The notes: generated by a model from the sequence alone, not told the origin. DNA of 64,000 nucleotides from Deltaproteobacteria bacterium (GCA_029262455.1 JAJCZJ010000020.1:325078-389077); one strand, 5' to 3'; shown: positions 27,498 through 46,892, counted from the stretch's first letter. Translations and numbers: made by a program.

Positions 27498-28907
27498 TCA
27501 AAACTGGAAGTAAATGAACTGCTGTTCCGTCGTGTACAGCGCAAGGACCGCCGCCAACATGGCACCGGCATAGATCGGCATCTCGAAGCGCTTCATTCCG
27601 AGTCCCGAGCTCCGGATCATTGCGGACCGCAAGTGAAGCGCCACGACCGGAGCGACGAAATACCAACCGAGTACTGTCAGATCGTCTAGGGAGCCAAGCC
27701 CACCACCAACCAACGAGACGATCCCCGCCACTGCATTGCCGACAACTCGCGTGCTCTGCGATAGATCCTCGGCGCGGAACAGGCCCATGCTCAGGATCCA
27801 CGTCACTTGCACGACGAGATACCAGCCCATCGAGGCCAGACGTCCCTGAGGTCCGCGCGAGAAACCCAAGGTCCGCTCGATCGCGAGCGCCAGCCCGTGC
27901 AACGCCCCCCACATCACGAAGGTCCAACTCGCACCATGCCAAAGTCCAGCGATCACCATGACCGCTGTGACGTTCACCAACGTGCGAGCTCGTCCGTGCC
28001 GGTTCCCCCCCAACGGGATGTACAGGTAGTCGCGGAACCAACGCGAGAGCGTGATGTGCCAACGACGCCAGAAATCGCTGAAGGTTGCCGCGATGTAGGG
28101 AGCGTCAAAATTGATCGGCAAGCGAAAGCCAAGCTGATAGGCAAGCCCGCGCGCAATGTCGGTATATCCCGCGAAGTCACAGAACAGCTGGCAGGAGAAA
28201 AAGGCGAGCATCGAGAGAGCCAGCAATCCGCCACCGGTTTCCGACGCGGCGCTCTCCCAATGCGTATCGACGACGCGTCCGAGGTTGTCAGCGACGACGA
28301 CCTTGAGAAACAGGCCGCGAACGATCAGGTAGGCGCCTTCGAAGAAGACTCTACCTCTGAAACCACGGTCGCGTTCCAACTGATAGAGAAAATCCCGCGC
28401 TCGAACGATCGGGCCCGCGACGAGCTGCGGAAAGAAGGCGATATAGCAGGCGAGTCGGACAAAGCTTTTCTCAGCCGGGATGTCGCCGCGGTAAACGTCG
28501 ATCGTGTAGCTCATCGACTGAAACGTATAGAACGAGATCCCAATCGGGAGGACAATCTCCGGATCCACAAACTGCCAAAGGCCCGAGGTCGCAATGTTCT
28601 GCGCCACAAAGCCACCGTACTTGAAGTAGCCGAGCAGCCCCAGATTGAGCAGCAGAGAAAGCGAAAGAATGCCCTTGCGCCGTGCCGTAGCCGACCCTGG
28701 CGCAGCGGCAATCACGCGGGCAGCGAAATAGTCGACACACGTGCTGAAGAGAATGAGGGCGAAGTACTTGGGGACGTGCCAGGAATAAAACGCCCAGCTC
28801 AGCAACAAGAGCCCGAAGACGTACGATCGGTTCGATCGGCGCGTCGCACCGCGCAGCGCCAACGCCAAAAAGAACAGGAACAAGAAAGAGACAGAAAGAA
28901 AGCTCAC
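27498..28907 (-). CDS. MBOAT family membrane-bound O-acyltransferase (AlgI/DltB/PatA-like)
   Basis: 469 aa, multi-TM. Conserved GISFYTFQ, FWRRWHITLSRWFRDYLYIPLGGNR and the His in WHGASW. Confidence 0.75.
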   Translation of the reverse strand: MSFLSVSFLFLFFLALALRGATRRSNRSYVFGLLLLSWAFYSWHVPKYFALILFSTCVDYFAARVIAAAPGSATARRKGILSLSLLLNLGLLGYFKYGGFVAQNIATSGLWQFVDPEIVLPIGISFYTFQSMSYTIDVYRGDIPAEKSFVRLACYIAFFPQLVAGPIVRARDFLYQLERDRGFRGRVFFEGAYLIVRGLFLKVVVADNLGRVVDTHWESAASETGGGLLALSMLAFFSCQLFCDFAGYTDIARGLAYQLGFRLPINFDAPYIAATFSDFWRRWHITLSRWFRDYLYIPLGGNRHGRARTLVNVTAVMVIAGLWHGASWTFVMWGALHGLALAIERTLGFSRGPQGRLASMGWYLVVQVTWILSMGLFRAEDLSQSTRVVGNAVAGIVSLVGGGLGSLDDLTVLGWYFVAPVVALHLRSAMIRSSGLGMKRFEMPIYAGAMLAAVLALYTTEQQFIYFQF

Positions 28908-29405: not shown

Positions 29406-30590
29406 ATGCCGAAAGAAGAGATCGAGGTCGAGGTTCGGGTTCGGCTGCGCGGAGGGCATTCCTACGATCTCACCCTATCATCCAACTCCGCTCTTCTGCG
29501 CGACTTGATCACGACGCTCGGCGGGTCGAGAAACTCGGTCCAGCCCCGACTCTTCCAGCTACCCCTCGACGGCGGCCAAACCTCCGCAACATTCGCCAGC
29601 GATCAGATATCAGCGATCGACACCCGTCCGCCACTCGACTGGAACACCATCACAACTGGTACGGAAGAGCGGTCCGCAAAAAGCCTCGGCGATGGTCCGC
29701 CTCTCGTCCTACGCGGCGCCCGCAACATTACACGCCAGCCATCCTACGAGGCAGCAGAGCGACGAGCGCGGCGGCTGATGGAACCGTTCGTGGCGCATCG
29801 ACAAGCCCGCCGTGCCGCACTGAAGAGCACTTGCGACGAGCTCGGCGGAAACACCTTCGTCGTCTCCCCCTTCAACCAAGGCTTCGTCCCGCTACTGCGC
29901 AACTGGGCCGCATCCTGTGATCGTTCCGGCATCGACTGCCGCGCCAGGACGGTACTGTTTCCGACCGACAACGGCGCCGACACTGCAGCACGCGAGCTCG
30001 GATTCGCAACCCTCTTCGACGGCGTCTCGTTTGACGGTGCCCCGCGCGACGCTATCAAAGTCTACGGGGACGCCCACTTTGCCGATTGTGTCTTCGCCAA
30101 GCTCGGCGCAGCAATCGACATGCTCGCTCTCGGCTACGACATCCTACTCCAGGATATGGATCTCGTCTGGTTCAAAGACCCGCTCCCCGGACTCAAAACT
30201 CGAGCGATGGCCGACGATCTGGACTTACAGTTCATGCGCGACATGAATCCGCGCTTCCAGCCGCTGTACTACAACTCCGGCTTCGTATTTATGCGCAACA
30301 ACGAATTCACCCGCCAAACCTGGAACACCATCTTCGACGCCTTTGCGGCGGTCGTGTTCTACCGCTCCGATCAAACCGTCGTGAACCAGGTCGTCGACTG
30401 CTACAAAGAGCGAGGATTGCGAGCCGCCCGTCTTCCAGATCGCTACGTAGATGGACAACTGCTGATCCGGGCCCAAACAAAACGCCGGCCTCTACCGCCA
30501 GATTCGATCGTGGCTCACGTCAACTGGACCGGAAACCTTGCCGAGAAGATCGCTCGGCTCAAAGCACTCGAACTGTGGTTCATCGACTGA
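29406..30590 (+). CDS. Novel ~80-aa N-terminal domain fused to a nucleotide-diphospho-sugar transferase (Nucleotid_trans/GT77-like) domain
   Basis: Start taken at MPKEEIEVEV (internal Met of ORF 29367..30590; weak RBS, start uncertain). C-terminal domain has LLQDMDLVWFKDP (the DxD...W motif of the Nucleotid_trans family). The N-terminal 80 aa are homologous to the N-terminus of the 36641 protein and to an internal segment of the 41978 protein. Confidence 0.5.
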   Translation: MPKEEIEVEVRVRLRGGHSYDLTLSSNSALLRDLITTLGGSRNSVQPRLFQLPLDGGQTSATFASDQISAIDTRPPLDWNTITTGTEERSAKSLGDGPPLVLRGARNITRQPSYEAAERRARRLMEPFVAHRQARRAALKSTCDELGGNTFVVSPFNQGFVPLLRNWAASCDRSGIDCRARTVLFPTDNGADTAARELGFATLFDGVSFDGAPRDAIKVYGDAHFADCVFAKLGAAIDMLALGYDILLQDMDLVWFKDPLPGLKTRAMADDLDLQFMRDMNPRFQPLYYNSGFVFMRNNEFTRQTWNTIFDAFAAVVFYRSDQTVVNQVVDCYKERGLRAARLPDRYVDGQLLIRAQTKRRPLPPDSIVAHVNWTGNLAEKIARLKALELWFID

Positions 30591-30673: not shown

Positions 30674-31942
30674 ATGCCGACATTTGTTGGCGACACCTTA
30701 CCGGAGGCGCTTCGAGCCTTGGACTGCTCAAAATCCATCGAAACTCGTGTCCTGCCGCGCGCAGTGGCCTTCGGTCGCTTGCTTCTCGCTATCGCGGCGG
30801 CACTTGCCGTGGTGACAGCTCCGCATAGGGCGCCGGCAGCCCAGATCAAGTTCACGGGATTTGCCCAAATCAACGGCGCCCCGAGCGGACCGTTCGCAGC
30901 ATTCACAATGAATGAGGTCGTCGATATGACGATCACGATCGACGAGACTACGGCCGATTCGAATGGCGCCGGCGGCGCCGGATCATACAGCGATCCGACC
31001 TCGACCGCATTGTTCGAGGGACAGACCTCCGTGCAGATGGTCACTTTCACCGGCTTCGGCTTCGAACTCCTCGATTCGACGCGACTCGACCCGGCCAACG
31101 GCCTCGTCTCATCGAGCCCGAGCGCGGCGTACGTCGAGGACTGGGACCTGACCAACCTGTCGCCGATTTCGAACGTCGACGACCTTCCGACCATCATTGC
31201 CGAGTTGCCCAATGTGAACATTGGAACCGTCAGCGCCAACTTTTCGATACAACAACTGCCCGCCGGCCCGACCACGCTCTTCCTCGGGCTCAAGCCAACC
31301 GTCACGGTCACCGACTTTTGCGGCAACGGCATCGTCGAGGCCCCGGAAGCGTGTGACGATCCGGTGTGTTGCAACCCGACCTGCACCGCAATCATAGCGA
31401 ACGGAACTGAATGCCGCGCTTCAGCCGGCGTCTGTGATGTGGCCGAGACCTGCAGCAACGGCGCATGCCCCGTCGACGGCTTCGCCTCGATCGGCACCGT
31501 GTGCAACCCGTCATTGGGCGTCTGTGATCCAGAGGAAGTGTGCAGCGGCTCGAGCGCGGAATGCCCGCCGGACACGCTGACTCAGTTCACCTGTGGCACG
31601 ATCTGCGGCGCCCCGGTAGACGAGTGCGACGTTGCCGACATCTGCGTCTCCGGCAACGTCGATTGCCCACCGATGGGGACAATGTGCACACCGACACCGG
31701 TTCCGACTCCGACGCCCACGCCCGTTCCCGAAAATGGGTCCGGGGACGGGGCTTGCAGCGACGGTCTCGACAACGACAACGACAACCTCATCGACTGCGA
31801 CGACCCTGATTGCCTCGACGTCGAGGCATGCGAAACCGTGCACGCACCGACGCTCTCGCCAGGTGGATTGACGATCACCGTGCTCATCCTCGCCCTCATC
31901 GGCTTGTTGGCGATGGGGCGGGCAGTGCTCCGGAAGAACTGA
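30674..31942 (+). CDS. Secreted Cys-rich repeat protein (CGNG...ECDD myxo-type/disintegrin-like repeats) with PT linker and C-terminal TM plus basic tail (possible sorting signal)
   Basis: Internal ATG of ORF 30086..31942; the true start may be a nearer GTG. Repeats CGNGIVEAPEACDD, CRASAGVCDVAETCSNGACPVDGF and CNPSLGVCDPEEVCSGSSAECPPD, a TPTPVPTPTPTPVP linker, and a tail APTLSPGGLTITVLILALIGLLAMGRAVLRKN. Confidence 0.5.
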   Translation: MPTFVGDTLPEALRALDCSKSIETRVLPRAVAFGRLLLAIAAALAVVTAPHRAPAAQIKFTGFAQINGAPSGPFAAFTMNEVVDMTITIDETTADSNGAGGAGSYSDPTSTALFEGQTSVQMVTFTGFGFELLDSTRLDPANGLVSSSPSAAYVEDWDLTNLSPISNVDDLPTIIAELPNVNIGTVSANFSIQQLPAGPTTLFLGLKPTVTVTDFCGNGIVEAPEACDDPVCCNPTCTAIIANGTECRASAGVCDVAETCSNGACPVDGFASIGTVCNPSLGVCDPEEVCSGSSAECPPDTLTQFTCGTICGAPVDECDVADICVSGNVDCPPMGTMCTPTPVPTPTPTPVPENGSGDGACSDGLDNDNDNLIDCDDPDCLDVEACETVHAPTLSPGGLTITVLILALIGLLAMGRAVLRKN

Positions 31943-31962: not shown

Positions 31963-32469
31963 ATGAGCGACTCCAAAAAGACAAGAAAGCAGCTAATCGA
32001 AGAACTCGAACAACTTCGTGGTCAAGTCGCGCAGCGACAGCAGTCGCAGTCGGACAACAGTGCACCGGCGCTTGCCGGCGACGTTTCACGACGCACCGCG
32101 CTAAAGGTCGCCTGGACCGCGCCGGTCATTTTGGCAATCCCTCTCCAGGCCGATCGCTCTGGCGCCCAACCTCCGGTCGGAACGGTGGCCCCGGGCTGTC
32201 CCACCATGACCCCGACCAACGCGGCCCCTCCGACTAGCTCGCCGACCTTGTTCCCAACGACCGCTGAGCCGACGATTTCGCCGACTCAACCAGTCCCGAC
32301 CACCAGGTTGCCAACGTCCAGTCCCACGAACGACCCGACATTGCGTCCGACCACCAGCCCGACGATCCCTGCCCCGACGGCTATGCCGACGGCGAGGCCG
32401 ACCACCAGCCCGACGATCCCTGCTCCGACGCTTTCCCCGACCCCTGGTTTCCCGACGCTTTCCCCGTAA
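31963..32469 (+). CDS. Small exported Pro/Thr/Ser-rich protein, paralog A (coiled-coil N-region plus SRRTALK Tat-like motif)
   Basis: Internal Met of ORF 31810..32469: MSDSKKTRKQLIEELEQLRGQVAQRQ...DVSRRTALKVAWTAPVILAIPLQ followed by PTTSPTIPAPT-type repeats. A paralogous N-terminus is found at 45413..45892 on the opposite strand. Confidence 0.5.
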   Translation: MSDSKKTRKQLIEELEQLRGQVAQRQQSQSDNSAPALAGDVSRRTALKVAWTAPVILAIPLQADRSGAQPPVGTVAPGCPTMTPTNAAPPTSSPTLFPTTAEPTISPTQPVPTTRLPTSSPTNDPTLRPTTSPTIPAPTAMPTARPTTSPTIPAPTLSPTPGFPTLSP

Positions 32470-32611: not shown

Positions 32612-33976
32612 ATGTCGTCAGGAAACAGCGTAGAAACGCCGCCTACCAACTCTGGAGACTCCCCACGAGCACGGGGTGCGGCGGCTCGGCGGGTACGTCC
32701 GCGGCAGCGGGGCGGGCTCGAGACTTTCGAAGTACACAACGAAATCGTCGTGCTTCCCGGCGAGGGGGACCGCGTTTACGCGCTGAACGAGTCCGGTAAG
32801 GAGATCTTCGGCCTCTGCGACGGTCGCCACACCCTAGAGGCAATGGTCGACCAACTGGCGTCGAGGTACGACGCGCCTGACGTCGCGATCATGGGCGACG
32901 TGTCCGCAGCGATATTCGACCTCCACGGCCTCGGGCTGGTCGATATTCCTCCACCGGCTGACGCAGCTGCATCGATCGAGCCGCAGACCTCGGTCAAGGC
33001 ACGACCCAACGTGCGTTTCGTCTTCGGCATAGAGGACGTGCCCTATTTCCACTGGCAGCTTGCCATCCTCTTCGAGTCGCTCGTCGGCCAATTGCCCGAC
33101 GGTTGGGACGTCACCGTCGTCGTTTGCAACGACGAAGCACCGATTTCCGACGAGCTCATGAAGATCGTTTCCGAGTACGGTGTTCGCATCATGACCGGCA
33201 CCAGTCTCGCCGATCGCCACAGTCTCGACTTCGCCGGCGGCGGTGATCGCTACGTTCCGATGAACCGAGTCGAAGCACTCAGCGTCATTCGGCAAATCGT
33301 CGAACCCGAAGACGTCGTTTGCCTTCTGGACACCGACGTCTTCCTGTACGGCAACCTTCAAGAACAACTCTTCCCGACCGGCAACGCAATGGCCCGCAAC
33401 TGGATCATCTCCGAAGATCGGTACTTCGCGTTCTCGACCAACAACGAACGAGGACTGTCGCTCCCGAAGCTGCTCGAAGCCCTGGGGTGCGAGCAGGAGT
33501 TCAAACCCGGTGGCGTAGCGGTCTTCTTGACGGGAGAGACGATCCAACGCGAGCGCGTCATCCCCGACATTTTCCGTTTCCTTCAGGTTCTGTTCCTGCT
33601 CGGGAAAATCGTCGACGCACCAGCGCACGGCGTTTGGGTCGCCGAAATGGCATGCTTCGCAATGGCCATGTACCCCAACGAAATCGACTACGAGCTTCTC
33701 GACATCCCGCAATTCGCCGTCCAGGAGCAGCATGCTGAAGTCGCCCCCGACGGTTCGTTCTTCCACTACTACACCGACATCAACGACGGCGGGGGATCAA
33801 ATGGTCCGTTTTTCGAATCGCAGTGGCATAAACAGTTATTTCACCAGTCCAACATGCTCCTCGAAGACTTCGACAGCTTCAGAGTGAACGCCAAAGGCCG
33901 CCTCGAGCAGCGCTTCTTCGAAATCGCCGACAAGGCGAGAAAGCGCCTTTACGGCATCGAACGCACGGGCAAGTAG
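32612..33976 (+). CDS. PqqD-like (RRE) domain fused to a DxD-containing putative glycosyltransferase domain
   Basis: Residues ~36-112 (FEVHNEIVVLPGEGDRVYALNESGKEIFGLCDGRHTLEAMVDQLASRYDAPDVAIMGDVSAAIFDLHGLGLVD) match the PqqD/RiPP-recognition-element pattern (LNETA..IWELCDG..T..EI...L...Y......DV..FL..L...GLI). The C-terminal domain has DTD and acidic motifs. Confidence 0.5.
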   Translation: MSSGNSVETPPTNSGDSPRARGAAARRVRPRQRGGLETFEVHNEIVVLPGEGDRVYALNESGKEIFGLCDGRHTLEAMVDQLASRYDAPDVAIMGDVSAAIFDLHGLGLVDIPPPADAAASIEPQTSVKARPNVRFVFGIEDVPYFHWQLAILFESLVGQLPDGWDVTVVVCNDEAPISDELMKIVSEYGVRIMTGTSLADRHSLDFAGGGDRYVPMNRVEALSVIRQIVEPEDVVCLLDTDVFLYGNLQEQLFPTGNAMARNWIISEDRYFAFSTNNERGLSLPKLLEALGCEQEFKPGGVAVFLTGETIQRERVIPDIFRFLQVLFLLGKIVDAPAHGVWVAEMACFAMAMYPNEIDYELLDIPQFAVQEQHAEVAPDGSFFHYYTDINDGGGSNGPFFESQWHKQLFHQSNMLLEDFDSFRVNAKGRLEQRFFEIADKARKRLYGIERTGK

Positions 33977-33980
33977 AGCC

Positions 33981-34598
33981 GTGTTGTCAATGTTCGATAC
34001 GCCCGCACACCTCGAGCAGCAGACGCGCGAGCAACAGGCCGCAGCCCGGTACTGCGGGCTCGGCTTCAAAAAGGCCACGCTGCCCTCCGAGGTCTTGCAA
34101 CGGTTGCGCCAACACCTGGAAACGAACAGCCGCCGATTCCGCGCCGAGGAGCCCATCGACTACCTCGTCAACCCGGACCCCGGGAAGATTCCGGCCCTTT
34201 ATTTCGAGGACAAAGAATTCAACGCCACCCTAAGTCGCGAGCTACAAGGATTGCACGAAGAGTGGGCCGGAAGGAGTCTGACCGAGTCCGCCTGCTACGG
34301 CATCCGCGTCTATCAACGCGGCAGCTTTCTCTACAACCACGTCGACCACACCGACACACACATCATCAGCTCTTCGATCTGCGTCGACCACCGCCTCGAC
34401 AAGCCGTGGCCCCTCTACGTCGAGGATATCGACGGCAATCCCCACCAGATCGATCTCGACCCTGGCGACATACTGTTCTACGAGGGAGCCCGCCTGCGAC
34501 ACGGCCGTGCCTATCCACTCGAGGGTGACTACTACGCATCCATTTTCGTCCACTATCGACCCGCAAATCTCTGGTCTTCGCGGCTCGTTGGCACCTAG
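33981..34598 (+). CDS. 2OG-Fe(II) oxygenase superfamily protein (PhyH/P4H-like)
   Basis: YNHVDHTD (HxD) followed by a distal H in LRHGR and a jelly-roll-like spacing. Alternative ATG start at 33990. Confidence 0.55.
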   Translation: MLSMFDTPAHLEQQTREQQAAARYCGLGFKKATLPSEVLQRLRQHLETNSRRFRAEEPIDYLVNPDPGKIPALYFEDKEFNATLSRELQGLHEEWAGRSLTESACYGIRVYQRGSFLYNHVDHTDTHIISSSICVDHRLDKPWPLYVEDIDGNPHQIDLDPGDILFYEGARLRHGRAYPLEGDYYASIFVHYRPANLWSSRLVGT

Positions 34599-34640: not shown

Positions 34641-36644
34641 GTGAGACATCTACTCTATACAAACTACCAGTCCGGTCAGTCGGGTTTGAGCAACGGCATC
34701 ATGTCGATCGAGCTGGGCGTGGTCCTCGCGTTCCTGACGAATCGGTTTCTCCTGCTCGATGGCAACATCTCCCCGCCGGCCAATATCGTGTCGTACGGCG
34801 ATCGAGTCGACAACAGCCAGCCGAGCCGCGTCACCGACCTGATCGACCTACCGGTCGCCTGGAGTGAGCCAGGAAGCGTCGACGTGTCCAAGTTGCCGTT
34901 CCTCGAATTGAGCGACGACCATCTGGGGAGTGCCGCGTTCTATGTCCCCGGCACCGTCGACATCCGATCCGCCGACGCGGAAGCGTTCGCCAACGGCAGG
35001 ACAGTGTGGCTCAACGCTGGCGGCTCGCTCGACGAGATCCCGGTGCTGCGAGTGTCCGAGGATCACAGCAAAGACAATCTTCGATACAATCTCAACTACT
35101 ACTCGTACTTCTTCTACCTCGACGACGAAACGCGTCGCTCCGTCTACCGCATGCTCGAGCGGATGCAACCAAAGCAGGACCTAGGGGAGCTGGCGAAGCG
35201 CGTCGCCGGCGATCTCGGAGCATTCAACGCGGTGCACTTGCGACGCGGTGACTTCAAGGTGACCTATGGAGTCACCACCCTCGACCGTCAACCTTGGGAA
35301 GCAATCGAGGCGCTCGAGCATCACTTCAAACGCGACGACACTCTGGTCTTCGTGACCGACGAGCGCGACGACCCGTTCTTCGACGAGATCAAGAAGGTCT
35401 ATACGCATCACGTATTCATCGATCACCACATCCTCGACGACTACGAGAAGGACTTCGCCGCATTGCAGCACCGCGACAGCATCGCCTTGGCCTATCTTTC
35501 CCAGCTCGTGGCGGCCGAATCCGCCGACTTCATTGGCACCATGACCAGCACGTTCACCGCCATCATCCAGCGCTACCGCGGCAATCGCGGCAAGGCCGAG
35601 AGTTTCAAGTACCTTTGGAACGAGCTCCCGGACGACGGCGATCGTCTCGAACGCGGCCGTCATCCGGTTAGTGAGTGCGTCCCGATGGACCGCGGCATGA
35701 TGGTCGAAGAGTCGTCGGGTCCGTACTCATGGAATCGCTACAACAAGAGGATCGCCGCCAACTGGATGCGCGAATGGCCCGAAAGTTTTCTGACCCAAGA
35801 GAGCCTCGAAACCGGCAAATTGACGACCGGGGCCAGCCCCGTTGCCCGCCCCATCGTTCTGGTTCGTCCCGAAAGGACGAAAGTCGAGGTCGCGTTCGAC
35901 GGCTTGAGCATCATTCTAAACTCGCAAGTGCCTCGCGTTGCGACCAAGCTGAGCGAAGCCTTCGAATCACGCCAAGCTGCGAGTCCAGCGAACGTCATCG
36001 GGGAGTTCGAGGTTGCTGAAGAAGACGGCGACTTCCGTCTTCTGCAACGCGGCCAGGAAATCGCCACCGCAGCAAGCTACGAGGAGTTGGCGCGCACGTT
36101 AAAACTCCGCATGGTGCCGATCTTTGTCGGTGCGCGCCGCCGGCACGTGTGGCTGGAAGCTTTTTCCTTCCGTAGAGCAGGCCATGCGCTGGTTCTCGCC
36201 GGCGACATGGGTCCTCCATCGGACTGGCTGCCGGACGCCATGTGCTCGAACGGCTGGGAGCTGCTGTGGGACGAGATCGTCCCGATCCGCCTGGAAGACT
36301 GTACCGTCACACCGTTCGGCCGCACGACCTGGCCGAAGGGCGCAGCCCTGCGCATCGACCGTACGCCCTGTCGCGTCAGCGGCCTGATCGTCACCAGCCG
36401 ACAAGTCCAGCGCCGCGACACCTTGACCGTCTTGTCCCCAGCCACCGGGGTGGCGGAGTTGATCGGCCGCTGCGTCGACTTCCGCACCGACCGCAAGCGG
36501 GCGGTAGAACGCCTGTGCAAGCTGGTCGAGAAACGAACCGTAGGCAGACTGTCCTTCAGCCGCGCCGAGACCGCTGTCGATCTCCTCACGCGCCCCTTCC
36601 TCGACGCGGAGCGTGAGTCCGCCCACGGTACAAAGTCTGCATGA
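34641..36644 (+). CDS. Fucosyltransferase-superfamily GT-B (O-FucT-like) domain plus ~250-aa C-terminal domain of unknown function
   Basis: N-terminal QSGLSNGIMSIELGVVLAFLTNRFLLL resembles the GGLxNQ block of O-FucT/POFUT-like GTs. HLRRGDF matches the H-x-R-R-G-D motif shared by GT11/GT23/GT65/GT68. The C-terminal region has no recognised motif. Confidence 0.45.
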   Translation: MRHLLYTNYQSGQSGLSNGIMSIELGVVLAFLTNRFLLLDGNISPPANIVSYGDRVDNSQPSRVTDLIDLPVAWSEPGSVDVSKLPFLELSDDHLGSAAFYVPGTVDIRSADAEAFANGRTVWLNAGGSLDEIPVLRVSEDHSKDNLRYNLNYYSYFFYLDDETRRSVYRMLERMQPKQDLGELAKRVAGDLGAFNAVHLRRGDFKVTYGVTTLDRQPWEAIEALEHHFKRDDTLVFVTDERDDPFFDEIKKVYTHHVFIDHHILDDYEKDFAALQHRDSIALAYLSQLVAAESADFIGTMTSTFTAIIQRYRGNRGKAESFKYLWNELPDDGDRLERGRHPVSECVPMDRGMMVEESSGPYSWNRYNKRIAANWMREWPESFLTQESLETGKLTTGASPVARPIVLVRPERTKVEVAFDGLSIILNSQVPRVATKLSEAFESRQAASPANVIGEFEVAEEDGDFRLLQRGQEIATAASYEELARTLKLRMVPIFVGARRRHVWLEAFSFRRAGHALVLAGDMGPPSDWLPDAMCSNGWELLWDEIVPIRLEDCTVTPFGRTTWPKGAALRIDRTPCRVSGLIVTSRQVQRRDTLTVLSPATGVAELIGRCVDFRTDRKRAVERLCKLVEKRTVGRLSFSRAETAVDLLTRPFLDAERESAHGTKSA

Positions 36645-37630
36645 CAGACCAAGCAACCGCACCGCGCCAGATCGACATCCGCATCTCCACCATCGGCGGG
36701 CACGAGTATCGGTTGAATCTCCGCGAAGACGCCGTCCATTTGCGCGACCTCTTTACTCGATTCGTCAACCGACCGGCGACTGGGGCTGTCCGAGCTCCTG
36801 AATTCATCCAACTGCCCCTCGACGGAGGCAACGCTTCCTGCACGATCGCCGTCGATCAGATTGTGTCGATCGTCACCACGCCACCAGTCGTCATCGAAGT
36901 GCAACAACCCGCCGTCGAGCCAAACGTAATTCCAGATGTGCCGGCAGTGGTCGCGCCACCCCAGATCCGGCGCGCACACTACACGGTGATCGACGACTTT
37001 CTCACCGTCGATGAGCACCGAGACATGCTGGCGTTGGCATTGAGCGAGAAGGACAGCTTCGAACCCGGTACGGTGCAGGGTGAACCGAGTCCACACCGAC
37101 GAAACAGCGTCATCATGAACTTCGCAGACTCGGCGCACGGAACACTGCTGACAAGTCGTCTGCTCGTTTGGTTTCCATTGATCGCAAAGGCGCTGAAGGA
37201 ACCACTGTTTCCGCTCAAGACGGTCGAGTCGCAACTGACCGCCGCCAACGACGGAGACTACTATAAGCCTCACCTCGATACCGACGGGAAGACCCCCGAT
37301 TTCCGGGTCATCGCGTGCGTCTACTATTTCTTCCGCGAGCCAAAAGGGTTCACGGGCGGCGACCTACGCCTCTATGATTCCATCGAAACAGGTGGCGAAA
37401 TCTGTCAGGCGGATTCCTTCCAAGACATTCGGCCGGCAAGCAATCGCTTGGTCGCATTCACCTGCGAGACCTTCCACGAGCTGCTCGCGACTCGCTGCCC
37501 GTCCAAGGATATCGAAGACAGTCGTTTTGCGGTGACCGCGTGGTTTCACCGCAGCGGCGCACCGGACCCCGACGCCAAGTTCGGTTGGGGACATTATCGT
37601 TGCGGCGAAGTTCCGGAGGCACTGCGGTGA
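36641..37630 (+). CDS. Novel ~80-aa N-terminal domain fused to a prolyl-4-hydroxylase-like 2OG-Fe(II) oxygenase
   Basis: C-terminal domain has YYKPHLDTD (HxD), GGDLRLY, NRLVAF..ETFHEL (second His) and RFAVTAWF (2OG-binding Arg), which is the P4H pattern. The N-terminus IDIRISTIGGHEYRLNL...LRDL...QLPLDGGNASCTIAVDQIVSIVTTPP is paralogous to the N-terminus of the 29406 protein. ATGA overlap with the upstream gene. Confidence 0.6.
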   Translation: MTDQATAPRQIDIRISTIGGHEYRLNLREDAVHLRDLFTRFVNRPATGAVRAPEFIQLPLDGGNASCTIAVDQIVSIVTTPPVVIEVQQPAVEPNVIPDVPAVVAPPQIRRAHYTVIDDFLTVDEHRDMLALALSEKDSFEPGTVQGEPSPHRRNSVIMNFADSAHGTLLTSRLLVWFPLIAKALKEPLFPLKTVESQLTAANDGDYYKPHLDTDGKTPDFRVIACVYYFFREPKGFTGGDLRLYDSIETGGEICQADSFQDIRPASNRLVAFTCETFHELLATRCPSKDIEDSRFAVTAWFHRSGAPDPDAKFGWGHYRCGEVPEALR

Positions 37631-37802: not shown

Positions 37803-38930
37803 ATGATCTTCACGGTTTTCGTCGCACCGGTCGAACCAACGCAACAGTGGCGTGCCGATCTCCTCGAATACTCATGGCGACGCATCAAGCAGAGCGGCGA
37901 ACTGATCCGGCTGGCGCCAACCGCCCCCGGACGCGCACCAGGTAGCAGAGGGAGAGTCGGGAGAACCGTCAAAACGTTCGACTGGAACCCCCACCCGTAC
38001 ACCCAGGACGTGTACGCCGGCTATCAGACAACCGCCGGCGTACTCGAGTGGTTGTTCAACGAGCCGGCCGAAGGAACAGTCCTTTTGCTGGATTCGAGCT
38101 GCATCCTACGCCACCCGGTTACAGCAGAGGTCGAACCAGGCCACGTGCGCGGGTCGTCGTGGCCGGAGATCCCACTTGGCACGGACGGCCCATTCGGCCT
38201 GCATGATGATCTGAAGTTTCTCGAATCCTATTGCGTCAACCGCAAGCTCCCCCTCGCTCCCGTGCGGATGCCGATTTTGATCCACACGGCGGACCTGCGA
38301 AAAATCGCGGCGCGCTGGCTCGAGCTTACGGCGTTGATTCGATCCCATGCCGTAGGCGTTCACGGAAAATACCTTCATGCAGATCGCGTCGCCTACACCG
38401 TCGCCGCCGCCGAATACCGCATCCTCCACACCCTTGACGACCTCGGCACTACGACGTCGGATACCGGCAAAGACGTTCCGATCGTCGACTACAGCACACC
38501 GATCAAGTCCAAACAGGGAGAGATCGTCTGGGACCGAAAGGTCTATCGACCATGGGAGGCAGTCTACACCGAAAATGCGCGCGCAGGCGCAGGCAGAGAC
38601 GTACTCGGGATCCTGAACGAGATGGTGACGCGCCGCGAATCGGGAGCCGAGCTTGCGGCAACACGTCCACAGCGGTGCTACGGGGTGCGGGAAGCACGAA
38701 TTCTCGACGACATTCATCTCGAAGTACCTGGGTGTGCCGACTTGATGTCGCTGAATCAATCCGCGGCTGCCATCTGGGAGCTGTGCAACGGCGAGAACAC
38801 ACTCGCCGAGATCGTCAGCGAGCTCGAGAGACAATTCGACGCGTCACGCGAAACCCTCATGACATCCGTCGAATCGACGGCGAGGGATTTGGAAAGCTCA
38901 GGTGCCATCGAGCTGGAGGAGCTGTTCTGA
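37803..38930 (+). CDS. Unassigned N-terminal (possibly glycosyltransferase) domain with C-terminal PqqD-like (RRE) domain
   Basis: C-terminal 83 aa ILDDIHLEVPGCADLMSLNQSAAAIWELCNGENTLAEIVSELERQFDASRETLMTSVESTARDLESSGAIELEE match the PqqD pattern. N-terminal ~290 aa begin MIFTVFVAPVEPTQQWRADLLEYSWRRIKQSG. Confidence 0.5.
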   Translation: MIFTVFVAPVEPTQQWRADLLEYSWRRIKQSGELIRLAPTAPGRAPGSRGRVGRTVKTFDWNPHPYTQDVYAGYQTTAGVLEWLFNEPAEGTVLLLDSSCILRHPVTAEVEPGHVRGSSWPEIPLGTDGPFGLHDDLKFLESYCVNRKLPLAPVRMPILIHTADLRKIAARWLELTALIRSHAVGVHGKYLHADRVAYTVAAAEYRILHTLDDLGTTTSDTGKDVPIVDYSTPIKSKQGEIVWDRKVYRPWEAVYTENARAGAGRDVLGILNEMVTRRESGAELAATRPQRCYGVREARILDDIHLEVPGCADLMSLNQSAAAIWELCNGENTLAEIVSELERQFDASRETLMTSVESTARDLESSGAIELEELF

Positions 38931-40156
38931 TGGCATCCAAAGCAAAACCAAGCGCCAAAAAGTCCGTGCCGACCACAAAAACAAAGCACGCAGCAAAACG
39001 TGCCAAAGCCTCGGCCAAGAAAACAGCCAAAGCGCCGCCCGGAAAAGCCACGACAGCACGGGCGAAGAAGACCACCAAGACTCCGGCCTCCAAGAGCCCC
39101 AAAACCCGGACCCAAAGGACCCGGGCCCAAAAGCCCCGGGCCCGCAAAGCCGCGCTCAAAGTATCGCAAACGGTGTCGCCCAAAGGATCGCAAACGACTT
39201 CGAAGACGGAGCGAACGACCCCATCGCCTCGCGCAAAGTCGCGGCAGGCCACAAAACAACCCCAGATCTTCGTGTCGATCGCCTCCTACCGCGACCAGTT
39301 TCTTCACTTCACCATCGAGTCGGTGCTCAAACAGGCGACGTACCCAGAACGGTTGACCTTCGGCCTCTGCTGGCAAGCCGACGACACCGAGCAACTCGAT
39401 CAATACCTGCACGATCCGCGTTTCCGCATTCGCAAGTACCCGTACTACGCGAGCCTCGGCTACGGTTGGGCAAGAGCCGAGATCCAAAAACTATACGCCG
39501 GCGAAGAGTACCATCTACTGATCGATTCTCACACGTATCTCGCCAAGGGGTGGGACGAGAATCTGATCGCGCAACTCGAGAGCAAGCCGGGCGAGAAGCC
39601 GCTACTGACGACCAGCTCACCCCCTTTCACCTTCGACAATGACGGCAACGTCGTAATCCCGTGGCAAGGGACCGAACACGACGGCGTGCCGCTGATGAAG
39701 TGCGCACGAATCCAACCGGCAGGGTGGGTCGACATCCAGATGTCCAATGAGCGCAAGTCCACCAAACATCAAACCACCGGATTGGTGTGCTGTAACTTTG
39801 TCTTCACGCACGGGGCTTGGATCCGCGAAGTGCCCGAGGATCCGGCGATGATCAACGCCGGCCACGAGTCAGCCCTTTCGGTTCGTACCTTCACCCACGG
39901 ATACGACATCTACCTGCCCGACGAAATTCAAATCTGGCACCTCGACTACAACAACTACCCGAACGGTGAGCGCAACAAGGTATGGGAAGCAAAGTCCGAC
40001 AGTTGGCAGTCTGAGGGCACCGAGATCATGCTGCGGCGGCTGCAAGCGCTGTTCTACAACCGCGGCGACCGCGCCTCGCTCGGCCGCTACGGACTCGGTC
40101 GATCCCGCACCGTAGCCGACTGGGCGGAGATCACCGGACTCGACCTCAGTGACTGA
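38930..40156 (+). CDS. GT60-like (Glyco_transf_GlcNAc / Skp1-Hyp and mucin-Thr GlcNAc-transferase family) enzyme with ~110-aa Lys/Ala/Thr-rich histone-H1-like N-terminal tail
   Basis: ATG overlaps the upstream stop (TGATG). Tail MASKAKPSAKKSVPTTKTKHAAKRAKASAKKTAKAPPGK... Catalytic region starts IFVSIASYRDQFLHFTIESVLKQATYPERLTFGLCWQADD, which I recognise as the N-terminal signature of the GT60 family from memory (needs HMM confirmation). Paralogous to 46893..47900. Confidence 0.45.
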   Translation: MASKAKPSAKKSVPTTKTKHAAKRAKASAKKTAKAPPGKATTARAKKTTKTPASKSPKTRTQRTRAQKPRARKAALKVSQTVSPKGSQTTSKTERTTPSPRAKSRQATKQPQIFVSIASYRDQFLHFTIESVLKQATYPERLTFGLCWQADDTEQLDQYLHDPRFRIRKYPYYASLGYGWARAEIQKLYAGEEYHLLIDSHTYLAKGWDENLIAQLESKPGEKPLLTTSSPPFTFDNDGNVVIPWQGTEHDGVPLMKCARIQPAGWVDIQMSNERKSTKHQTTGLVCCNFVFTHGAWIREVPEDPAMINAGHESALSVRTFTHGYDIYLPDEIQIWHLDYNNYPNGERNKVWEAKSDSWQSEGTEIMLRRLQALFYNRGDRASLGRYGLGRSRTVADWAEITGLDLSD

Positions 40157-41942
40157 CGTCGACTCCGCACTACTGCCAATTCCCCAACCCGAGTGGCGTG
40201 CTTCTTTATCCGGCGACGGCGCGGCAGTTGATGTCCTGATTTTAAGCAAGGACCGCGCCTGCCAACTCGACGGACTGCTGCGCACGATGCGCGCGTTCCT
40301 GACCATCCCACACCGGAAATACGTACTGTACAAGACGTCTAATTTGGCGTTCGAGCGCGGCTACGACATGCTCCGCCGGTGGAATCCCGAGGTCGAGTTC
40401 ATCGACGAGGCGCAAACGTTTCGACAATGCTACCTCGACCTCGTGGCAAGGATCGCCGCCGGGCCTGGTCGCTACTGGATGCCGGTGATGGACGACATGA
40501 TCTTCACTCGCACGTTCACCGCACAGCCACTCATCGACCTCCTCGACACAGACGAGGACGTGCTGGCGATCTCTCTGCGCCTCGGCGAGAACATTACCTA
40601 TTGCTACACCCGAAACGCTCCAACCACACCTCCGGACTTCAGCAACGGACACCGTTGGGAATGGAGAACAGCCAGCCCAGGCTACTGGAACTATCCAATG
40701 TCCGTCGACGCCAACATCTACCGCACGGCGGAAATGGCCGAATACATCCCGACCCTCCAATTCGGCAAGGCTGAAGTCATCGAGGCACGCATGGCCGGGG
40801 TGCCCTTGAACCGCCCCCATATGCTGTGTGAACCGACCCCCAGCGTACTCAATCTCGCGATCAACCGCGTTCAACACACCTTCAAGAATCGGCACGGCAC
40901 AATCACGCCAGAAGCCCTGAACGGCGCTTTCCTCGCGGGTTTCGCGATGGATGTGCGCCCGTTGCTGGGTCGAACCTTCAACGCCTGTCACGTCGAGGTC
41001 GAGCTGTCCTTGGTCCCCGATGCGCGCGAGCGCCCCGGCGCAACGCCCCTCTCTTCGACCGGCTGGAAACCACAGCGAAACGGCGCCGTCGTCGTGACCG
41101 AGAGCCATGCTGTCGTGACGCTCAAGAGGAACGGAACGAAGCTCAAACTCAATCAGAGCGCCGAAGAGATCTGGAAACTGTGCGACGGAACACGAACGCC
41201 CGAGGACATCCAAAACGAGCTCGCGCAACATTTTGACGCAACCCCGCGCCAGCTTCACAGCGGCGTACGAAGCGCCCTGGCGAATTTCATCAATCACGGC
41301 CTTCTCCGTCAGGAACGCCCGGAAGGCGCATACCGCCGCATCGACCTGCGCCAGATTCCCTGCTTCGTGATCAATTGCGAAGCCGATGCTGAGAAGGACA
41401 CGTTGATGAAGCGTCAGCTCGCTGAGCTCGGGATACCGTACGAACGTGTACCCGGGATCGCCGCAAGCCCGGATTGGGTCGGCGTCGCGCTGTCGCACCT
41501 CAAAGTGCTTCGCCTGACCCGCTCGACGACACCCTTCCTGGTGCTCGAGGACGATTGCTTGTTCAACGACCGCTTCCAACCAGTGTGGCAAGTACCGGTC
41601 GAGGCCGACGCCCTGTATCTCGGCGTTTCCGAGTTCGGCCTCGAGACCCCCGGTCACTTCAGCTGGGGCCGCCGGCGCAAGAACCAATGGAGACCCTACG
41701 ACCGGTCCTTCCTCCGCATTTTCAACATGCTCGCACGCCATGCGGTCGTGTACCTTTCCAACGACTACTGCGAGCAAGTCATCCAATCGCAAATCGAAGC
41801 ACTGACGAATCGAAGTTTGCCGTACCCTGGGGACATCGGCTGCGCGATGCTGCAAGCATCGCACGTCGTCCTGACCCCGAACGAACCGATCTGCCGGCAA
41901 ACCGGTCGTGACTCGACCGTGCGTCCGTTGCCGGAGCTCTGA
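40149..41942 (+). CDS. Three-domain enzyme: GT-A (GT2-like) domain - PqqD-like (RRE) domain - GT25 family glycosyltransferase domain
   Basis: GTG start overlapping the upstream stop. N-terminal VDVLILSKDRACQLDGLLRTM and a DDM motif (GT-A). Residues ~312-388 VVTLKRNGTKLKLNQSAEEIWKLCDGTRTPEDIQNELAQHFDATPRQLHSGVRSALANFINHGLL (PqqD-like). C-terminal CFVINCEADAEKDTLMKRQLAELGIPYERVPGI matches the GT25 N-terminal motif (LPS GT25 / collagen Hyl-galactosyltransferase family). Confidence 0.5.
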   Translation: MTDVDSALLPIPQPEWRASLSGDGAAVDVLILSKDRACQLDGLLRTMRAFLTIPHRKYVLYKTSNLAFERGYDMLRRWNPEVEFIDEAQTFRQCYLDLVARIAAGPGRYWMPVMDDMIFTRTFTAQPLIDLLDTDEDVLAISLRLGENITYCYTRNAPTTPPDFSNGHRWEWRTASPGYWNYPMSVDANIYRTAEMAEYIPTLQFGKAEVIEARMAGVPLNRPHMLCEPTPSVLNLAINRVQHTFKNRHGTITPEALNGAFLAGFAMDVRPLLGRTFNACHVEVELSLVPDARERPGATPLSSTGWKPQRNGAVVVTESHAVVTLKRNGTKLKLNQSAEEIWKLCDGTRTPEDIQNELAQHFDATPRQLHSGVRSALANFINHGLLRQERPEGAYRRIDLRQIPCFVINCEADAEKDTLMKRQLAELGIPYERVPGIAASPDWVGVALSHLKVLRLTRSTTPFLVLEDDCLFNDRFQPVWQVPVEADALYLGVSEFGLETPGHFSWGRRRKNQWRPYDRSFLRIFNMLARHAVVYLSNDYCEQVIQSQIEALTNRSLPYPGDIGCAMLQASHVVLTPNEPICRQTGRDSTVRPLPEL

Positions 41943-41977: not shown

Positions 41978-44900
41978 GTGAAAAAGGGCACAATCCACGA
42001 TCTCTTCTCCCGCACCGCTTGCGTCGTGTCCGACAGGCACCGATTCATCTATTTGACGGCGCAAAACGCCACGTCTTCCCTGAAGGCCGAGCTGTCGAAC
42101 GAGCACTGCGGCGGCGTTGTCCTCGCCCGCGCACAGGTGGCTGATAAACTCTGGAACCAATACTTTACGTTCGCCTTCCTGCGCGACCCGCTGACGCGCT
42201 TTCTCTCCGCCTATCAGGAAGTGTCTCTGCACATGGAGCGTGACAAACTCGAACCGCGCCCTTTCGGCCGGATGCCCGACGGCCTCGATCGCTTTCAGGC
42301 ATTTCTCGCGGACGTCGAGCAGAACGGTCCGTGGAACGAGCACATTGCACTCCAGCTAGCCTTCGTCGAGCGCCGAAGAATCGACTTTTGGGGGCTCGTC
42401 GAAACGCTGCAAGACGACTTCCAACAAATCTACACCCGGCTGGGATTGGGGACCTGTCCCGTTCTGCCAAAACGCCGCTCTCGCAGCGGCCGTGAGGAAA
42501 AGGACGGCATCTCGCGCTTCGCCTTCCATCCGGAGGACCTCGATGCGACGACAATTGAGCGCATCTACGACCTCTACCGTGAGGACGTCTTGCTGATTCG
42601 AGCGGTTCGCCCCGACGCACCTGAAATGCAGCCGCACTCAACCCGTGCCGCACCGCCCCCCGGAATGGTGCAGGTGGCGATCGCCCTGGCCAACGGCGGC
42701 GAATACTCCCTCGAACTTCCGCCCGGCCAACCAGAGCTGGGCGCTCTGCAAGCTGTGGTATCACCACAACAATCCGATGGACGTTTTCTCGGCCCGCAAG
42801 TTCTGCAGGTTCCACTGCGTGGTGGCAATTCCGCGCTGACGTTTTCCACGCAGCACCTCGTTCGTCTCGAGCTACGCCCCCCCGACGCCCGAGAACTGCG
42901 CCGAATCGAGGCGCCGGCCACCGGCACGGGCAACTCCGGAGTGAATCTAATAAACGTCGGGAACAAGCGGCCGCCAACCGAGGACCCATCGAGCAATATC
43001 GACGAGGCGCATCTCGGTGGCTACATTCGTGCGGCCAATACACCGATTCTCCACAGCGCCGCAGGCCCACACGGGGACCGGGGAACCTGGAATCCGCTGC
43101 TGTGGCGTTGGGCAATCGAAGATCTCGACGTGCGATCAGTGATCGATATCGGATGCGGCGAGGGACACGCCGCCGGATTTTTCTCCGACGGCGGGTGTGA
43201 AGTGCTCGCGCTCGATGGCAGCCTTCAAGCGCGCTATTCCAGCGTTGTTCCAGATCGCCACGTCGTACACGACTTCGTCGAGGGACCTTTCGTCCCAGAG
43301 AAAAGCTTCGACATGGCCTGGACCTGCGAGTTCGTCGAACACGTCGAGGCGCGTTTTCTCCACAATTTCCTGGCTACGATCGCATCGAGCCGCAAGTACG
43401 TGATGATGACGTTCGCCAGCCCGACACAAACAGGCTGGCATCACGTCAATTGCCAAGAACAGGGTTACTGGGTCGATCAGTTGGGACGCCTCGGGTTTCG
43501 CCTGGACGACGATCTAACCGAGAGAGGCCGAGCCTTGGCTCACTCTCATTTTCGCGAACGTGGCCTGGTCTTCGTCCGGCACCATCGAAAAGGCGAGTCA
43601 TCGAAGTCCACAGAACCGTCGCTGCGCGCGACTGCCGAGAGTCACTGTCTCGACCCGCTGCCGGTCCAATCCATGCAGGTCGCACAGCGCGAGAGCGATG
43701 CCTTCTACCTGTTTGTCGACATCTTCGTGCATCCGACCGCACCGAGAATCGTGGCGATCTCACCACCCTATGGCGAAGACTGGAATCCTAACGTTGTCGG
43801 CATCGACTACGATGCCGTCGACCTTGTATTCGGTGACATACGCGTCCGCGGCCGCTGCCTGCGGCACCGTCTCGACTCCTGGGAGCCTTGCATGCTTCTC
43901 GAGTTCGAGGACGAAGACCTAACAGAGCGCATTCGGGCCAACGACGAGATCAACGTCACGATCGAGGCCGGCTCGCATTCGTCGTCCTTCGTCCTGACGA
44001 CCCGCCCAGCGCCAGCCTACGATGTCGCAATGAGCCTCGTCGTACGCAACGAAAACCGCTGGATCCGCACGTTTCTCGACTACTACCTCGACTGCGTCAA
44101 AGCCGACCACGTCTTCATCTACGACAACGGAACGTCGGAACAAGACCAGCTGCTTTCCATTCTTCACCCGTACCGAGAGCGCGGGCAAGTGACGTACATC
44201 CCGTGGGATTTTCGCTGGCGCAACCGCATCGACCGCAAGATGATCGGCCAACCGACACAGGAGGCTCACTCCCTTGCAAGATTCGCAAACACCGGGTGGA
44301 TCGGCTTTCTCGACATCGACGAGTTCCTGCGCTTGCCGCACAGCACCCTGCCACAATTTCTCGCTCGCTTCGCGTCCGCGGAGGTCGACGGACTCTCGTT
44401 CGGTATCCGGTGGTTTTCTTACGAGGGCCCGCTTGCACTCGATGAGATTACGAGTGTGCCACTGCAATTCCTCCACTCGCGCCGCAATGAGCTCGGCCGA
44501 AAACGGCAGAAGTTCTTCGTCAAAGGCGGCGGCTCGAAGTTTCTTCGCTTGCATTGGCTCGAAGACGGAGGTCGCGAACTGCCCATCGACGACACCGAGA
44601 TCTACTTTCACCACTACGATCAACGTCCCGGCCGTTTCGAAGAAGGAAAGCAAATCGGAGGAGCGCGCGACGAATACATGCTGCGCTTCGCCGACCAGCT
44701 CTCGCGCCCCGAGCGGCACAGAGCCCCTCTAACCGAGAGAGGATGGATCACCCACATCAACTCTTCGATCGAACGCGCCGAACGCGACACCTCCAAACTC
44801 ACCCCGGAAGTCCTCGCCGTCGACGGCATGTGCGGGCGCTACACCCGTCACTTCTACAACAACCTCTGCAGCTTCGGAGGATGCCGCTACCTCGAGATCG

Positions 44901-45412: not shown

Positions 45413-45892
45413 TTACTCCTCGCCCTTGGTTTCTTTTCCCACGGGAGCCGGTCGGCCCTCGTCGTCATCCGAAGCAATGAGCTTTTTAGCACCGAAGCCA
45501 AAGAGCGCCGCTGCGGCCACAGCCGCGGCGCCGCCTGAAACCACAGGCGCATCGACTGCTGCCTGAAAGGCGGTCGGAACCGCCGTACTGGGAAGGCCCG
45601 GATCGAGGACCGTCGGGACCTGCGTCGGTGCGGCAGTAGGATTGAGGCAAAGTGACGGCGAATTGGTACATTGCGTCGTCCCAGCTTCGACAGGCGCGAC
45701 GAATCCAAGATCAGACGAGACCGGTACCGATAAGATCACCGGCGTTACCCAGGCAATCTTGAGCGCCGAGCGCCTTGAAATATCGTCGGAAAAAGTCGGC
45801 CGCGCCGCCTTCCCGTCCGTCACCAGCTCGCCCCGCAGCCGCTCGATCTCCTCGAGAAGCTCCTTTTTCGTCTTCGTTCCGTCACCCGCCAT
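45413..45892 (-). CDS. Small exported Pro/Thr/Ser/Ala-rich protein, paralog B (coiled-coil N-region plus SRRSALK Tat-like motif, C-terminal hydrophobic segment)
   Basis: Internal Met of ORF 45413..45997, preceded by gagggtc. MAGDGTKTKKELLEEIERLRGELVTDGK...DISRRSALKIAWVTPVILSVPVSS, then a PT-rich region with two Cys, then AAAVAAAALFGFGAKKLIASDDDEG. Confidence 0.5.
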   Translation of the reverse strand: MAGDGTKTKKELLEEIERLRGELVTDGKAARPTFSDDISRRSALKIAWVTPVILSVPVSSDLGFVAPVEAGTTQCTNSPSLCLNPTAAPTQVPTVLDPGLPSTAVPTAFQAAVDAPVVSGGAAAVAAAALFGFGAKKLIASDDDEGRPAPVGKETKGEE

Positions 45893-46744: not shown

Positions 46745-46759
46745 GGGGATTCTATGTGT

Positions 46760-46878: not shown

Positions 46879-46892
46879 GTTGGGCAAAAGTT

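Follow-up and report, generated by a model that had tools for sequence, protein, structure and literature searches.

What does a small N-terminal module contribute to a prolyl-hydroxylase-like enzyme that is encoded among glycosyltransferase (GT) genes in a bacterium? This question is raised by gene G, located at positions 36641-37630 (plus strand) of a 64,000-nucleotide stretch from a Deltaproteobacteria bacterium (GCA_029262455.1 JAJCZJ010000020.1:325078-389077), which we refer to as the window; positions are counted from its first nucleotide. A sequence-only reading of this DNA had proposed that gene G fuses a shared docking module of ~80 amino acids to a 2-oxoglutarate (2OG)/Fe(II) oxygenase of the prolyl 4-hydroxylase (P4H) type, and that hydroxyproline (Hyp) formed by this enzyme precedes the addition of N-acetylglucosamine (GlcNAc) by GT60-like enzymes. 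Our analysis describes gene G as a PHD-type hydroxylase with an uncatalogued putative recruitment domain, which is part of a hitherto undescribed, widely conserved bacterial protein-glycosylation cassette. The architecture and the synteny of this system are firmly established; what the module does, and which chemistry takes place, we infer.

Architecture and catalytic domain of gene G

Based on the list of open reading frames (ORFs), Pfam, homologous sequences and an AlphaFold2 (AF2) model, gene G encodes a two-domain protein of 329 amino acids. The module occupies residues ~9-84 (36665-36892, plus strand), as delimited by BLASTP, a hidden Markov model (HMM) and a model of the module alone, and lies inside the region 36641-36910 previously assigned to it. 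These residues are homologous to two further segments of the window, in agreement with the proposed fusion of a shared module to the front of an oxygenase. A Pro/Val-rich linker follows (residues ~85-107; 36893-36961), which is modelled with low confidence: the mean predicted local distance difference test (pLDDT) score is 59 over residues 91-100, and no secondary structure is present between residues 81 and 107. The remaining part (residues ~108-329; 36962-37630) represents the catalytic double-stranded β-helix domain, whose limits are based on an alignment of homologs, an alignment with PhyA and PHD2, and Foldseek. Over the whole protein the AF2 model reaches a mean pLDDT of 91, with two confidently modelled domains. 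This two-domain architecture is found at full length in about 95 database proteins, and the best 79 of 317 species-genome matches cover the query from residue 1-12 onward. Because of these full-length homologs and the genome matches that include the N-terminus, we consider the module-P4H fusion to be conserved rather than a similarity that arose by chance. The ATG of gene G overlaps the TGA of the upstream 667-amino-acid gene F as ATGA, as is typical for translationally coupled genes. The gene product is a soluble, probably cytoplasmic, two-domain enzyme.

The Pfam family PF13640 (2OG-FeII_Oxy_3) matches residues 198-303 with an E value of 3.9e-15, above the curated cutoff. The motifs YYKPHLDTD, FHEL and RFAVTAWF, quoted by the earlier reading as the catalytic signature, are all found in the translation of the ORF, and a profile of 44 full-length homologs shows the arrangement H211-x-D213...H279...R295 to be invariant. 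On this basis we assign H211 (37271-37273), D213 (37277-37279) and H279 (37475-37477) as Fe(II) ligands and R295 (37523-37525), which aligns with the R of the PHD2 motif RYAITVWY, as the 2OG-binding residue (all codons on the plus strand); both the HxD...H triad and the Arg had been predicted.

Among all sequences of the PDB, the Skp1 prolyl hydroxylase PhyA of Dictyostelium matches best (6t8m, E = 2.6e-14); many PHD2/EGLN1 entries come next at ~1e-7, and then Pseudomonas PPHD (4iw3). The top matches of the predicted structure in a Foldseek search of the PDB are PPHD (4j25, E = 8.9e-12), PhyA (6t8m, 1.4e-10) and PHD2 (~2e-10). A structure prediction without a hydroxylase fold had been named in advance as the finding that would speak against the assignment; instead, the model with its pLDDT of 91 matches three hydroxylases. 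The domain combines the features of PHD-type 2OG oxygenases: a jelly-roll fold, the HxD...H triad and, for the C5-carboxylate of 2OG, a basic binding residue. Its nearest relatives of solved structure are without exception protein prolyl 4-hydroxylases. Sequence and predicted fold thus both support a P4H-type 2OG/Fe(II) oxygenase, and we classify the catalytic domain as a predicted PHD/EGLN-type protein prolyl-hydroxylase-like oxygenase. By analogy to its nearest characterized relatives, it would catalyze trans-4-hydroxylation of peptidyl proline.

Gene G and these relatives have the double-stranded β-helix, the HxD...H triad and the 2OG-binding Arg in common, but identity to PhyA, PHD2 (EGLN1) and PPHD is only ~20% over the catalytic core and none of the three carries an N-terminal module of ~75 amino acids. 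Their substrates Skp1, HIF-α and EF-Tu are folded regulatory proteins modified at single prolines, whereas the candidate substrates described below are secreted proteins with Pro-Thr repeats.

The N-terminal module and its distribution

Both in the full-length model and when modelled alone (pLDDT 91.5), the module shows the element order β-β-α-β-β-β, with strands at residues 10-17 and 22-28, a helix at 32-42 and three strands at 55-60, 65-70 and 74-80. Its conserved motifs comprise GGH, QLPLDGG and a PP at the end. The two other copies in the window were identified by BLASTP and HMM, again on the plus strand. Copy 1 (29418-29636) forms the N-terminus of a GT77-type glycosyltransferase encoded by 29406-30590 (Nucleotid_trans, PF03407, E = 4.2e-15). 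Copy 3 (42665-42886) is located inside a protein of 1135 amino acids (gene 41978-45385) with the domain order sulfotransferase, module, methyltransferase, GT92, methyltransferase. The copy of gene G (copy 2) shares 42% identity with copy 1 (BLASTP E = 1e-17) and 27% with copy 3 (9e-10), and E values between the module copies of the three operon enzymes range from 1e-8 to 1e-17 in pairwise comparisons. A six-frame scan of the window with the three-copy HMM recovers just these copies, for which the scan is circular as the HMM was built from them; the next match has an E value of 0.9. The presence of the module on three different enzymes, its predicted ability to fold alone and the low-confidence linker behind it indicate an independent, mobile unit.

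The module has no Pfam match at E ≤ 10 and no NCBIfam match. Foldseek returned no fold match in the PDB below an E value of 0.1; the best ones are Hfq/Sm-like proteins with a TM-score of ~0.5 and E values of at least 0.14, and we therefore rejected a Sm-like small barrel for lack of a significant structural match. In BFVD, only borderline matches to uncharacterized small phage proteins were obtained. A ubiquitin-like β-grasp, prompted by the order and lengths of the secondary structure elements, was discarded because there are no ubiquitin-like Foldseek matches in the PDB. We also considered a divergent PqqD domain, that is, a recognition element (RRE) of the kind known from peptides that are made on the ribosome and then modified post-translationally (RiPPs). 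RREs consist of three strands followed by three helices. The β-β-α-β-β-β order of the module differs from this topology, hhalign against 62 PqqD domains of the same loci gave a probability of 0.5%, and Pfam finds no PqqD match; the PqqD/RRE reading was rejected.

The module is rare: among 1.84 billion representative proteins, 139 carriers (cluster representatives) were identified by a profile search. Among the 85 carriers of at least 180 amino acids, the most frequent partner is a 2OG oxygenase domain (52 proteins), followed by methyltransferases (8), PqqD (6), O-FucT-like (5), GT92 (4), sulfotransferase (3), GT77 (2) and FUT8-like domains (2) and a single JmjC/Cupin_8 hydroxylase. In eight of ten multi-domain proteins examined, the module directly precedes a catalytic domain, either a P4H or a methyltransferase-GT92-methyltransferase unit; the other two contain no partner recognizable by Pfam. 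Fifty short matches were inspected as possible stand-alone module proteins, but most of them run into the start of a P4H domain or end abruptly, as expected for fragments at contig ends, and were not retained. The module and PqqD can be part of one polypeptide, which suggests that the two bind different things. Because a small autonomous domain recurs on unrelated tailoring enzymes of one system, we propose, by analogy and from the fusion pattern, that the ~75-residue module is most likely a recruitment domain with a putative docking function.

A conserved cassette and its candidate substrates

Gene G is encoded within a cassette whose genes we named D, E, F, G (the module-P4H gene), H and I, with J as an accessory gene. 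Conservation was determined in 81 related loci (L001-L081), of which 28 distinct non-cyanobacterial genomic loci form the basis of the cassette counts. The recurring gene order is precursor-D-E-F-G-H-I, where each gene is present in 26-28 of the 28 loci and D, E, F, G and H occur together in 25; a second GT60 gene often heads the cassette in front of the precursor gene. The cassette is found in Binatia, Gamma- and Betaproteobacteria, Polyangia, Acidobacteriota and Thermodesulfobacteriota. Relatives of gene G are encoded in 317 species genomes, the closest one (59% identity) in Candidatus Binatia. Others belong to Luminiphilus syltensis NOR5-1B, Elongatibacter sediminis and Halieaceae (Gammaproteobacteria), Candidatus Nitrotoga, Polyangia, Acidobacteriota and Thermodesulfobacteriota.

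Potential substrates are encoded next to these enzymes, and the expectation of precursor-like genes rich in Pro and Thr proved correct for the window. Candidate substrate 1 (31963-32469, plus strand) starts with an N-terminal amphipathic helix, followed by SRRTALK, which resembles a motif for twin-arginine translocation (Tat), then WTAPVILAIP and a Pro-Thr repeat region with 28% P and 27% T. Candidate substrate 2 (45413-45892, minus strand) shows the same leader architecture, with a shorter Ala-rich core (11% P, 10% T), a C-terminal hydrophobic anchor and an acidic tail. In the precursor family as a whole, the leader begins with a conserved helix of the type K-T/S-K-E-E-L-L-A-E-I-E-A-L-R and an acidic linker; then follow an invariant RR within (S/T)RRxxL, 40-60 residues from the N-terminus, W(V/I)APVILSVP and an AQAQ-type (AxA-like) site. 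The cores contain 10-29% Pro, with a strong preference of Pro-Thr over Thr-Pro (for instance, 47 vs. 2), and the C-termini are lineage-specific, being either a hydrophobic (transmembrane) anchor with an acidic tail or, in Gammaproteobacteria, an IPVEISDFDIS-type end; in many precursors this end would be an anchor or sorting motif. The leader HMM matches 28 of the non-cyanobacterial loci, and precursor homologs are located in L001-L029 and L038. A word-indexed search for a wider precursor family yielded just 11 proteins, all of them named hypothetical. Between the GT77-type gene and candidate substrate 1, the window also encodes a Cys-rich secreted protein (30698-31942, plus strand) with disintegrin-like repeats, a PTPVPTPTPTPVP linker and a C-terminal transmembrane segment; it lacks the precursor leader and has no counterpart in the 81 related loci.

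The cassette enzymes upstream of gene G are less readily classified. Domain scans and synteny assign to gene D (32612-33976, plus strand) an N-terminal PqqD domain of the RRE type and a glycosyltransferase-like domain without known family. A relationship of the latter to the hydroxyproline O-arabinosyltransferase (HPAT) family was dismissed as weak (6 of 25 orthologs, best E = 0.027), and a profile comparison of D and H gave a probability of 5%. Gene E (33981-34598, plus strand) encodes 205 amino acids with the invariant residues H120-x-D122...H174-G-R176, and its homologs are labelled prolyl 4-hydroxylase by JGI and UniRef. No similarity to Pfam, NCBIfam or the solved oxygenases of the PDB is detectable, nor does a profile comparison detect any to gene G. 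Judged by its motif, gene E may encode a second hydroxylase of the pathway. The product of gene F (34641-36644, plus strand; 667 amino acids) consists of two halves: the N-terminal one is O-FucT-like, with a Pfam score under the cutoff, and the C-terminal one bears weak similarity to HprK-related kinase A (TIGR04352, E = 1.3e-6), with a score far short of the cutoff. In some metagenomic proteins F and G are fused, resulting in the order O-FucT-like, module, P4H.

Directly downstream of gene G, gene H (37803-38930, plus strand) carries a distant HPAT-like GT domain followed by a C-terminal PqqD domain. The Pfam family of hydroxyproline O-arabinosyltransferases, PF23452, matches 18 of 27 gene H orthologs (best E = 4.4e-6), and no other family recurs. 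Gene I (38930-40156, plus strand) encodes a GT60-type GlcNAc transferase (PF11397, E = 1.9e-44), and a second GT60 GlcNAc-transferase gene is located at 46896-47900 on the minus strand (PF11397, E = 1.1e-43). GT60-like genes in the operon, as claimed by the sequence-only reading, are therefore present, and GT60 is co-conserved with gene G in 26 of the 28 loci. Accessory gene J (40149-41942, plus strand) encodes a GT domain, a PqqD domain and a GT25-like domain, so that D, H and J are the three other operon enzymes with genuine PqqD domains. None of the cassette enzymes shows clear transmembrane or signal segments, which makes modification in the cytoplasm probable.

Two further arrangements concern the other transferases. 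The second GT60 gene and a sulfotransferase gene (PF03567) together occupy 46052-47900 on the minus strand, divergently encoded and adjoining the second precursor gene. Some Gammaproteobacteria (L005, 13037-19900; L008, 7301-13495) have the counterparts of 40149-41942 and 41978-45385 fused into single ORFs of more than 2000 amino acids, in which GT, GT25, sulfotransferase, module, methyltransferase and GT92 domains are united.

Apart from the cassette-bearing lineages, many cyanobacteria carry the module-P4H fusion, with 30-35% identity. In ~50 cyanobacterial loci (L030-L081) from Microcoleus, Oscillatoria, Nostoc, Calothrix and others (e.g., L046, 9989-10891), it is an orphan gene that often follows purH directly, with an ankyrin-repeat gene in the vicinity. 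Clustering of the cyanobacterial neighbors revealed housekeeping synteny only, with purH and the ankyrin protein, and the leader HMM found no leader-bearing precursor within ±10 kb. Tandem duplicates of the fusion are present in L040 and L056. Since the fusion exists in these genomes as an orphan without cassette neighbors, the partner of the module need not be a leader encoded by the cassette.

A leader-guided pathway and its alternatives

Taking these observations together, we are on balance inclined to propose a cytoplasmic, leader-guided pathway of hydroxylation and O-glycosylation for mucin- or HRGP-like secreted proteins (HRGP, hydroxyproline-rich glycoprotein), in which the module serves as a recruitment domain. 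Our data establish the architecture and fold of the domains, the residues of catalysis, the three copies of the module with its pattern of fusions, and the synteny of the cassette; prolyl specificity on repeats, a binding role and partner for the module, an order of steps and an export route are inferred. In this pathway, the precursor encoded by the adjoining gene would be made in the cytoplasm. Enzymes D, H and J would dock on its leader region through their PqqD/RRE domains, and the hydroxylase, the GT77 enzyme and the methyltransferase/GT92 enzyme would do so through the module. The enzymes fall into a PqqD-bearing and a module-bearing set, the leader is bipartite and both domains can occur in one polypeptide, which suggests that PqqD and module recognize different elements. 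The gene G hydroxylase would then convert repeat Pro to Hyp with O2 and 2OG, after which O-glycans on Hyp and/or Thr would arise through the HPAT-like, GT60, GT77 and other transferases. Finally, the modified mucin/HRGP-like protein would be exported, possibly by the Tat route as the RR motif of the precursors suggests, and the leader would be removed. An added periplasmic modification stage may be provided by genes further upstream (16733-24116, plus strand; 27501-28907, minus strand), which encode three YfhO-like membrane proteins, a GT2 and an MBOAT O-acyltransferase; the YfhO-like/GT2 arrangement recalls the CsbB/YfhO pair of extracytoplasmic glycosylation.

The order "Hyp before GlcNAc" is one of at least two options, because GT60 enzymes also glycosylate Thr/Ser: besides their role on Skp1, they initiate Thr/Ser-linked mucin-type glycans (PMC8724618). 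For a transferase acting on Hyp, the HPAT-like GT-PqqD protein encoded by gene H is an equally good or better candidate than GT60.

By analogy to known systems, three comparisons are instructive. In the Skp1 pathway, where PhyA is followed by the GT60 enzyme Gnt1, with GlcNAc α-linked to Hyp, and then by further GTs, the later-acting enzyme AgtA belongs to GT77. Protist Skp1 is modified by a prolyl hydroxylase of the PhyA type together with a GlcNAc-transferase of family GT60 (PMC8724618), and a PhyA-like hydroxylase, two GT60 homologs (38930-40156 and 46896-47900) and a GT77-type transferase are likewise co-encoded in the window, all of them apparently cytoplasmic. A Skp1-like substrate, however, is absent here, the candidate substrates being leader-bearing proteins with Pro-Thr repeats; moreover, cassette enzymes carry PqqD or the module, and there are extra transferases as well as methyl- and sulfotransferases. 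Plant HRGPs are modified by P4H, then HPAT/GT95 and then GT77 enzymes (RRA/XEG113), the latter extending Hyp-linked glycans (PMC8012813). The plant and algal route to extensins and arabinogalactan proteins resembles our system in its repetitive Pro-rich substrates with Ser/Thr/Ala-Pro-type motifs, and in the window, too, a hydroxylase stands beside a GT with distant, weak similarity to the HPAT family, and a GT77 (PF03407) is present. In contrast to the plant enzymes, which are Golgi type-II membrane proteins of the secretory pathway, the cassette enzymes are soluble and apparently leader-guided via PqqD or the module, and while plant P4Hs are of the collagen type, the hydroxylase of gene G is of the PHD type. 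The third comparison is with RRE systems, which follow the same logic: in one cluster, several otherwise unrelated tailoring enzymes share a small domain, beside precursors that bear a leader. There, precursors are short peptides, whereas the "precursors" of the cassette are anchored proteins of 110-330 amino acids.

Several observations weigh against the proposed pathway. The catalytic domain is nearer to the PHD branch, which acts on single prolines of specific proteins, than to the repeat-acting P4Hs of the collagen/HRGP type, and a viral collagen-type P4H ranks only 42nd in the Foldseek search. Gene E places a second candidate hydroxylase inside the cassette. The HPAT similarity of gene H is distant, and the gene H product of the window itself reaches PF23452 with an E value of just 0.09, below the curated cutoff. 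The Tat assignment is a motif resemblance: the Pfam family TAT_signal matches with an E value of 6.2, and NCBIfam gives no match. Within 10 kb of the cyanobacterial copies there are no precursor, PqqD or GT neighbors, and the pathway does not explain these orphans.

Some of these points lead to other explanations of the module and of gene G. The module could be an assembly domain that tethers the hydroxylase, the GT77 enzyme and the methyltransferase/GT92 enzyme to one another or to a scaffold, such as F or the PqqD-GTs, so that PqqD alone touches the leader. The presence of PqqD on some enzymes and the module on others would fit this arrangement, as would the F-G fusions, the translational coupling of F and G, and the proteins of more than 2000 amino acids in which neighboring enzymes are joined in some genomes, all of which agree with physical association. 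We nevertheless consider assembly unlikely, as no partner enzymes are encoded near the cyanobacterial fusion, neither a convincing module protein on its own nor a scaffold bearing a complementary conserved domain came to light (the short matches being fragments), and some fusions may be artefacts of ORF calling (L004). The proximity to PHD2, PhyA and PPHD, which act on single prolines in defined contexts, raises a different possibility, namely that gene G is a site-specific hydroxylase for one conserved proline, e.g., within WVAPVILSVP, or for another type of residue, and that the E protein hydroxylates the repeats. The invariant prolines of the precursor leader would provide such a site, and the E protein has both an invariant HxD...H-G-R motif and the database name prolyl 4-hydroxylase. 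Yet the E protein resembles neither G nor any hydroxylase in Pfam, the PDB or NCBIfam, which leaves its activity even less certain, and the HPAT-like and GT60 neighbors imply that many acceptor sites are needed; in our judgment this division of labor is more doubtful still.

Least probable to us is an explanation that starts from the cyanobacterial orphans. Here, the ancestral or main target recognized by the module would be a housekeeping or otherwise unrelated protein, comparable to EF-Tu for PPHD or Rps23 for Tpa1/Ofd1, and the cassette lineages would have borrowed enzyme and module secondarily. The fusion is indeed widespread as an orphan beside housekeeping genes in cyanobacteria, the conserved module motifs are retained there, and databases annotate the protein as SM-20-related or Tpa1-like. 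However, such an origin hardly explains why the module is also found on GT77, methyltransferase/GT92 and other transferases in cassette genomes, and tight synteny as well as translational coupling bind gene G to the cassette.

Returning to the leader-guided pathway, we tentatively extend it in two directions, with less confidence than we attach to the pathway itself. The module could represent a second class of leader or substrate recognition, structurally unrelated to PqqD/RRE and acting beside it. The cassette as a whole could be a bacterial, cytoplasmic and leader-guided counterpart, possibly the evolutionary source, of the eukaryotic Hyp/Thr O-glycosylation pathways (PhyA/GT60; P4H/HPAT/GT77), and would yield mucin-like, heavily glycosylated proteins of the cell surface, whose export, perhaps via Tat, would follow their modification. 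We found no description of the cassette or of the module domain in the literature searched, and no curated family in Pfam or NCBIfam covers the module, the precursors or genes E and G.

To our knowledge, Hyp-linked glycosylation is regarded as a eukaryotic trait, represented by the HRGPs of plant cell walls and Skp1 of protists. With a PhyA/PHD-like hydroxylase encoded together with GT60, HPAT-like and GT77 enzymes and with Pro-Thr-repeat substrates, a prokaryotic origin of Hyp pathways would become directly testable. Experiments are feasible, since the two cultured strains Luminiphilus syltensis NOR5-1B and Elongatibacter sediminis carry a cassette-type locus. The occurrence of PqqD/RRE and of an uncatalogued domain on different enzymes points to what may be a novel recognition module that guides tailoring enzymes and would be of use in RiPP engineering, glyco-engineering and genome mining.

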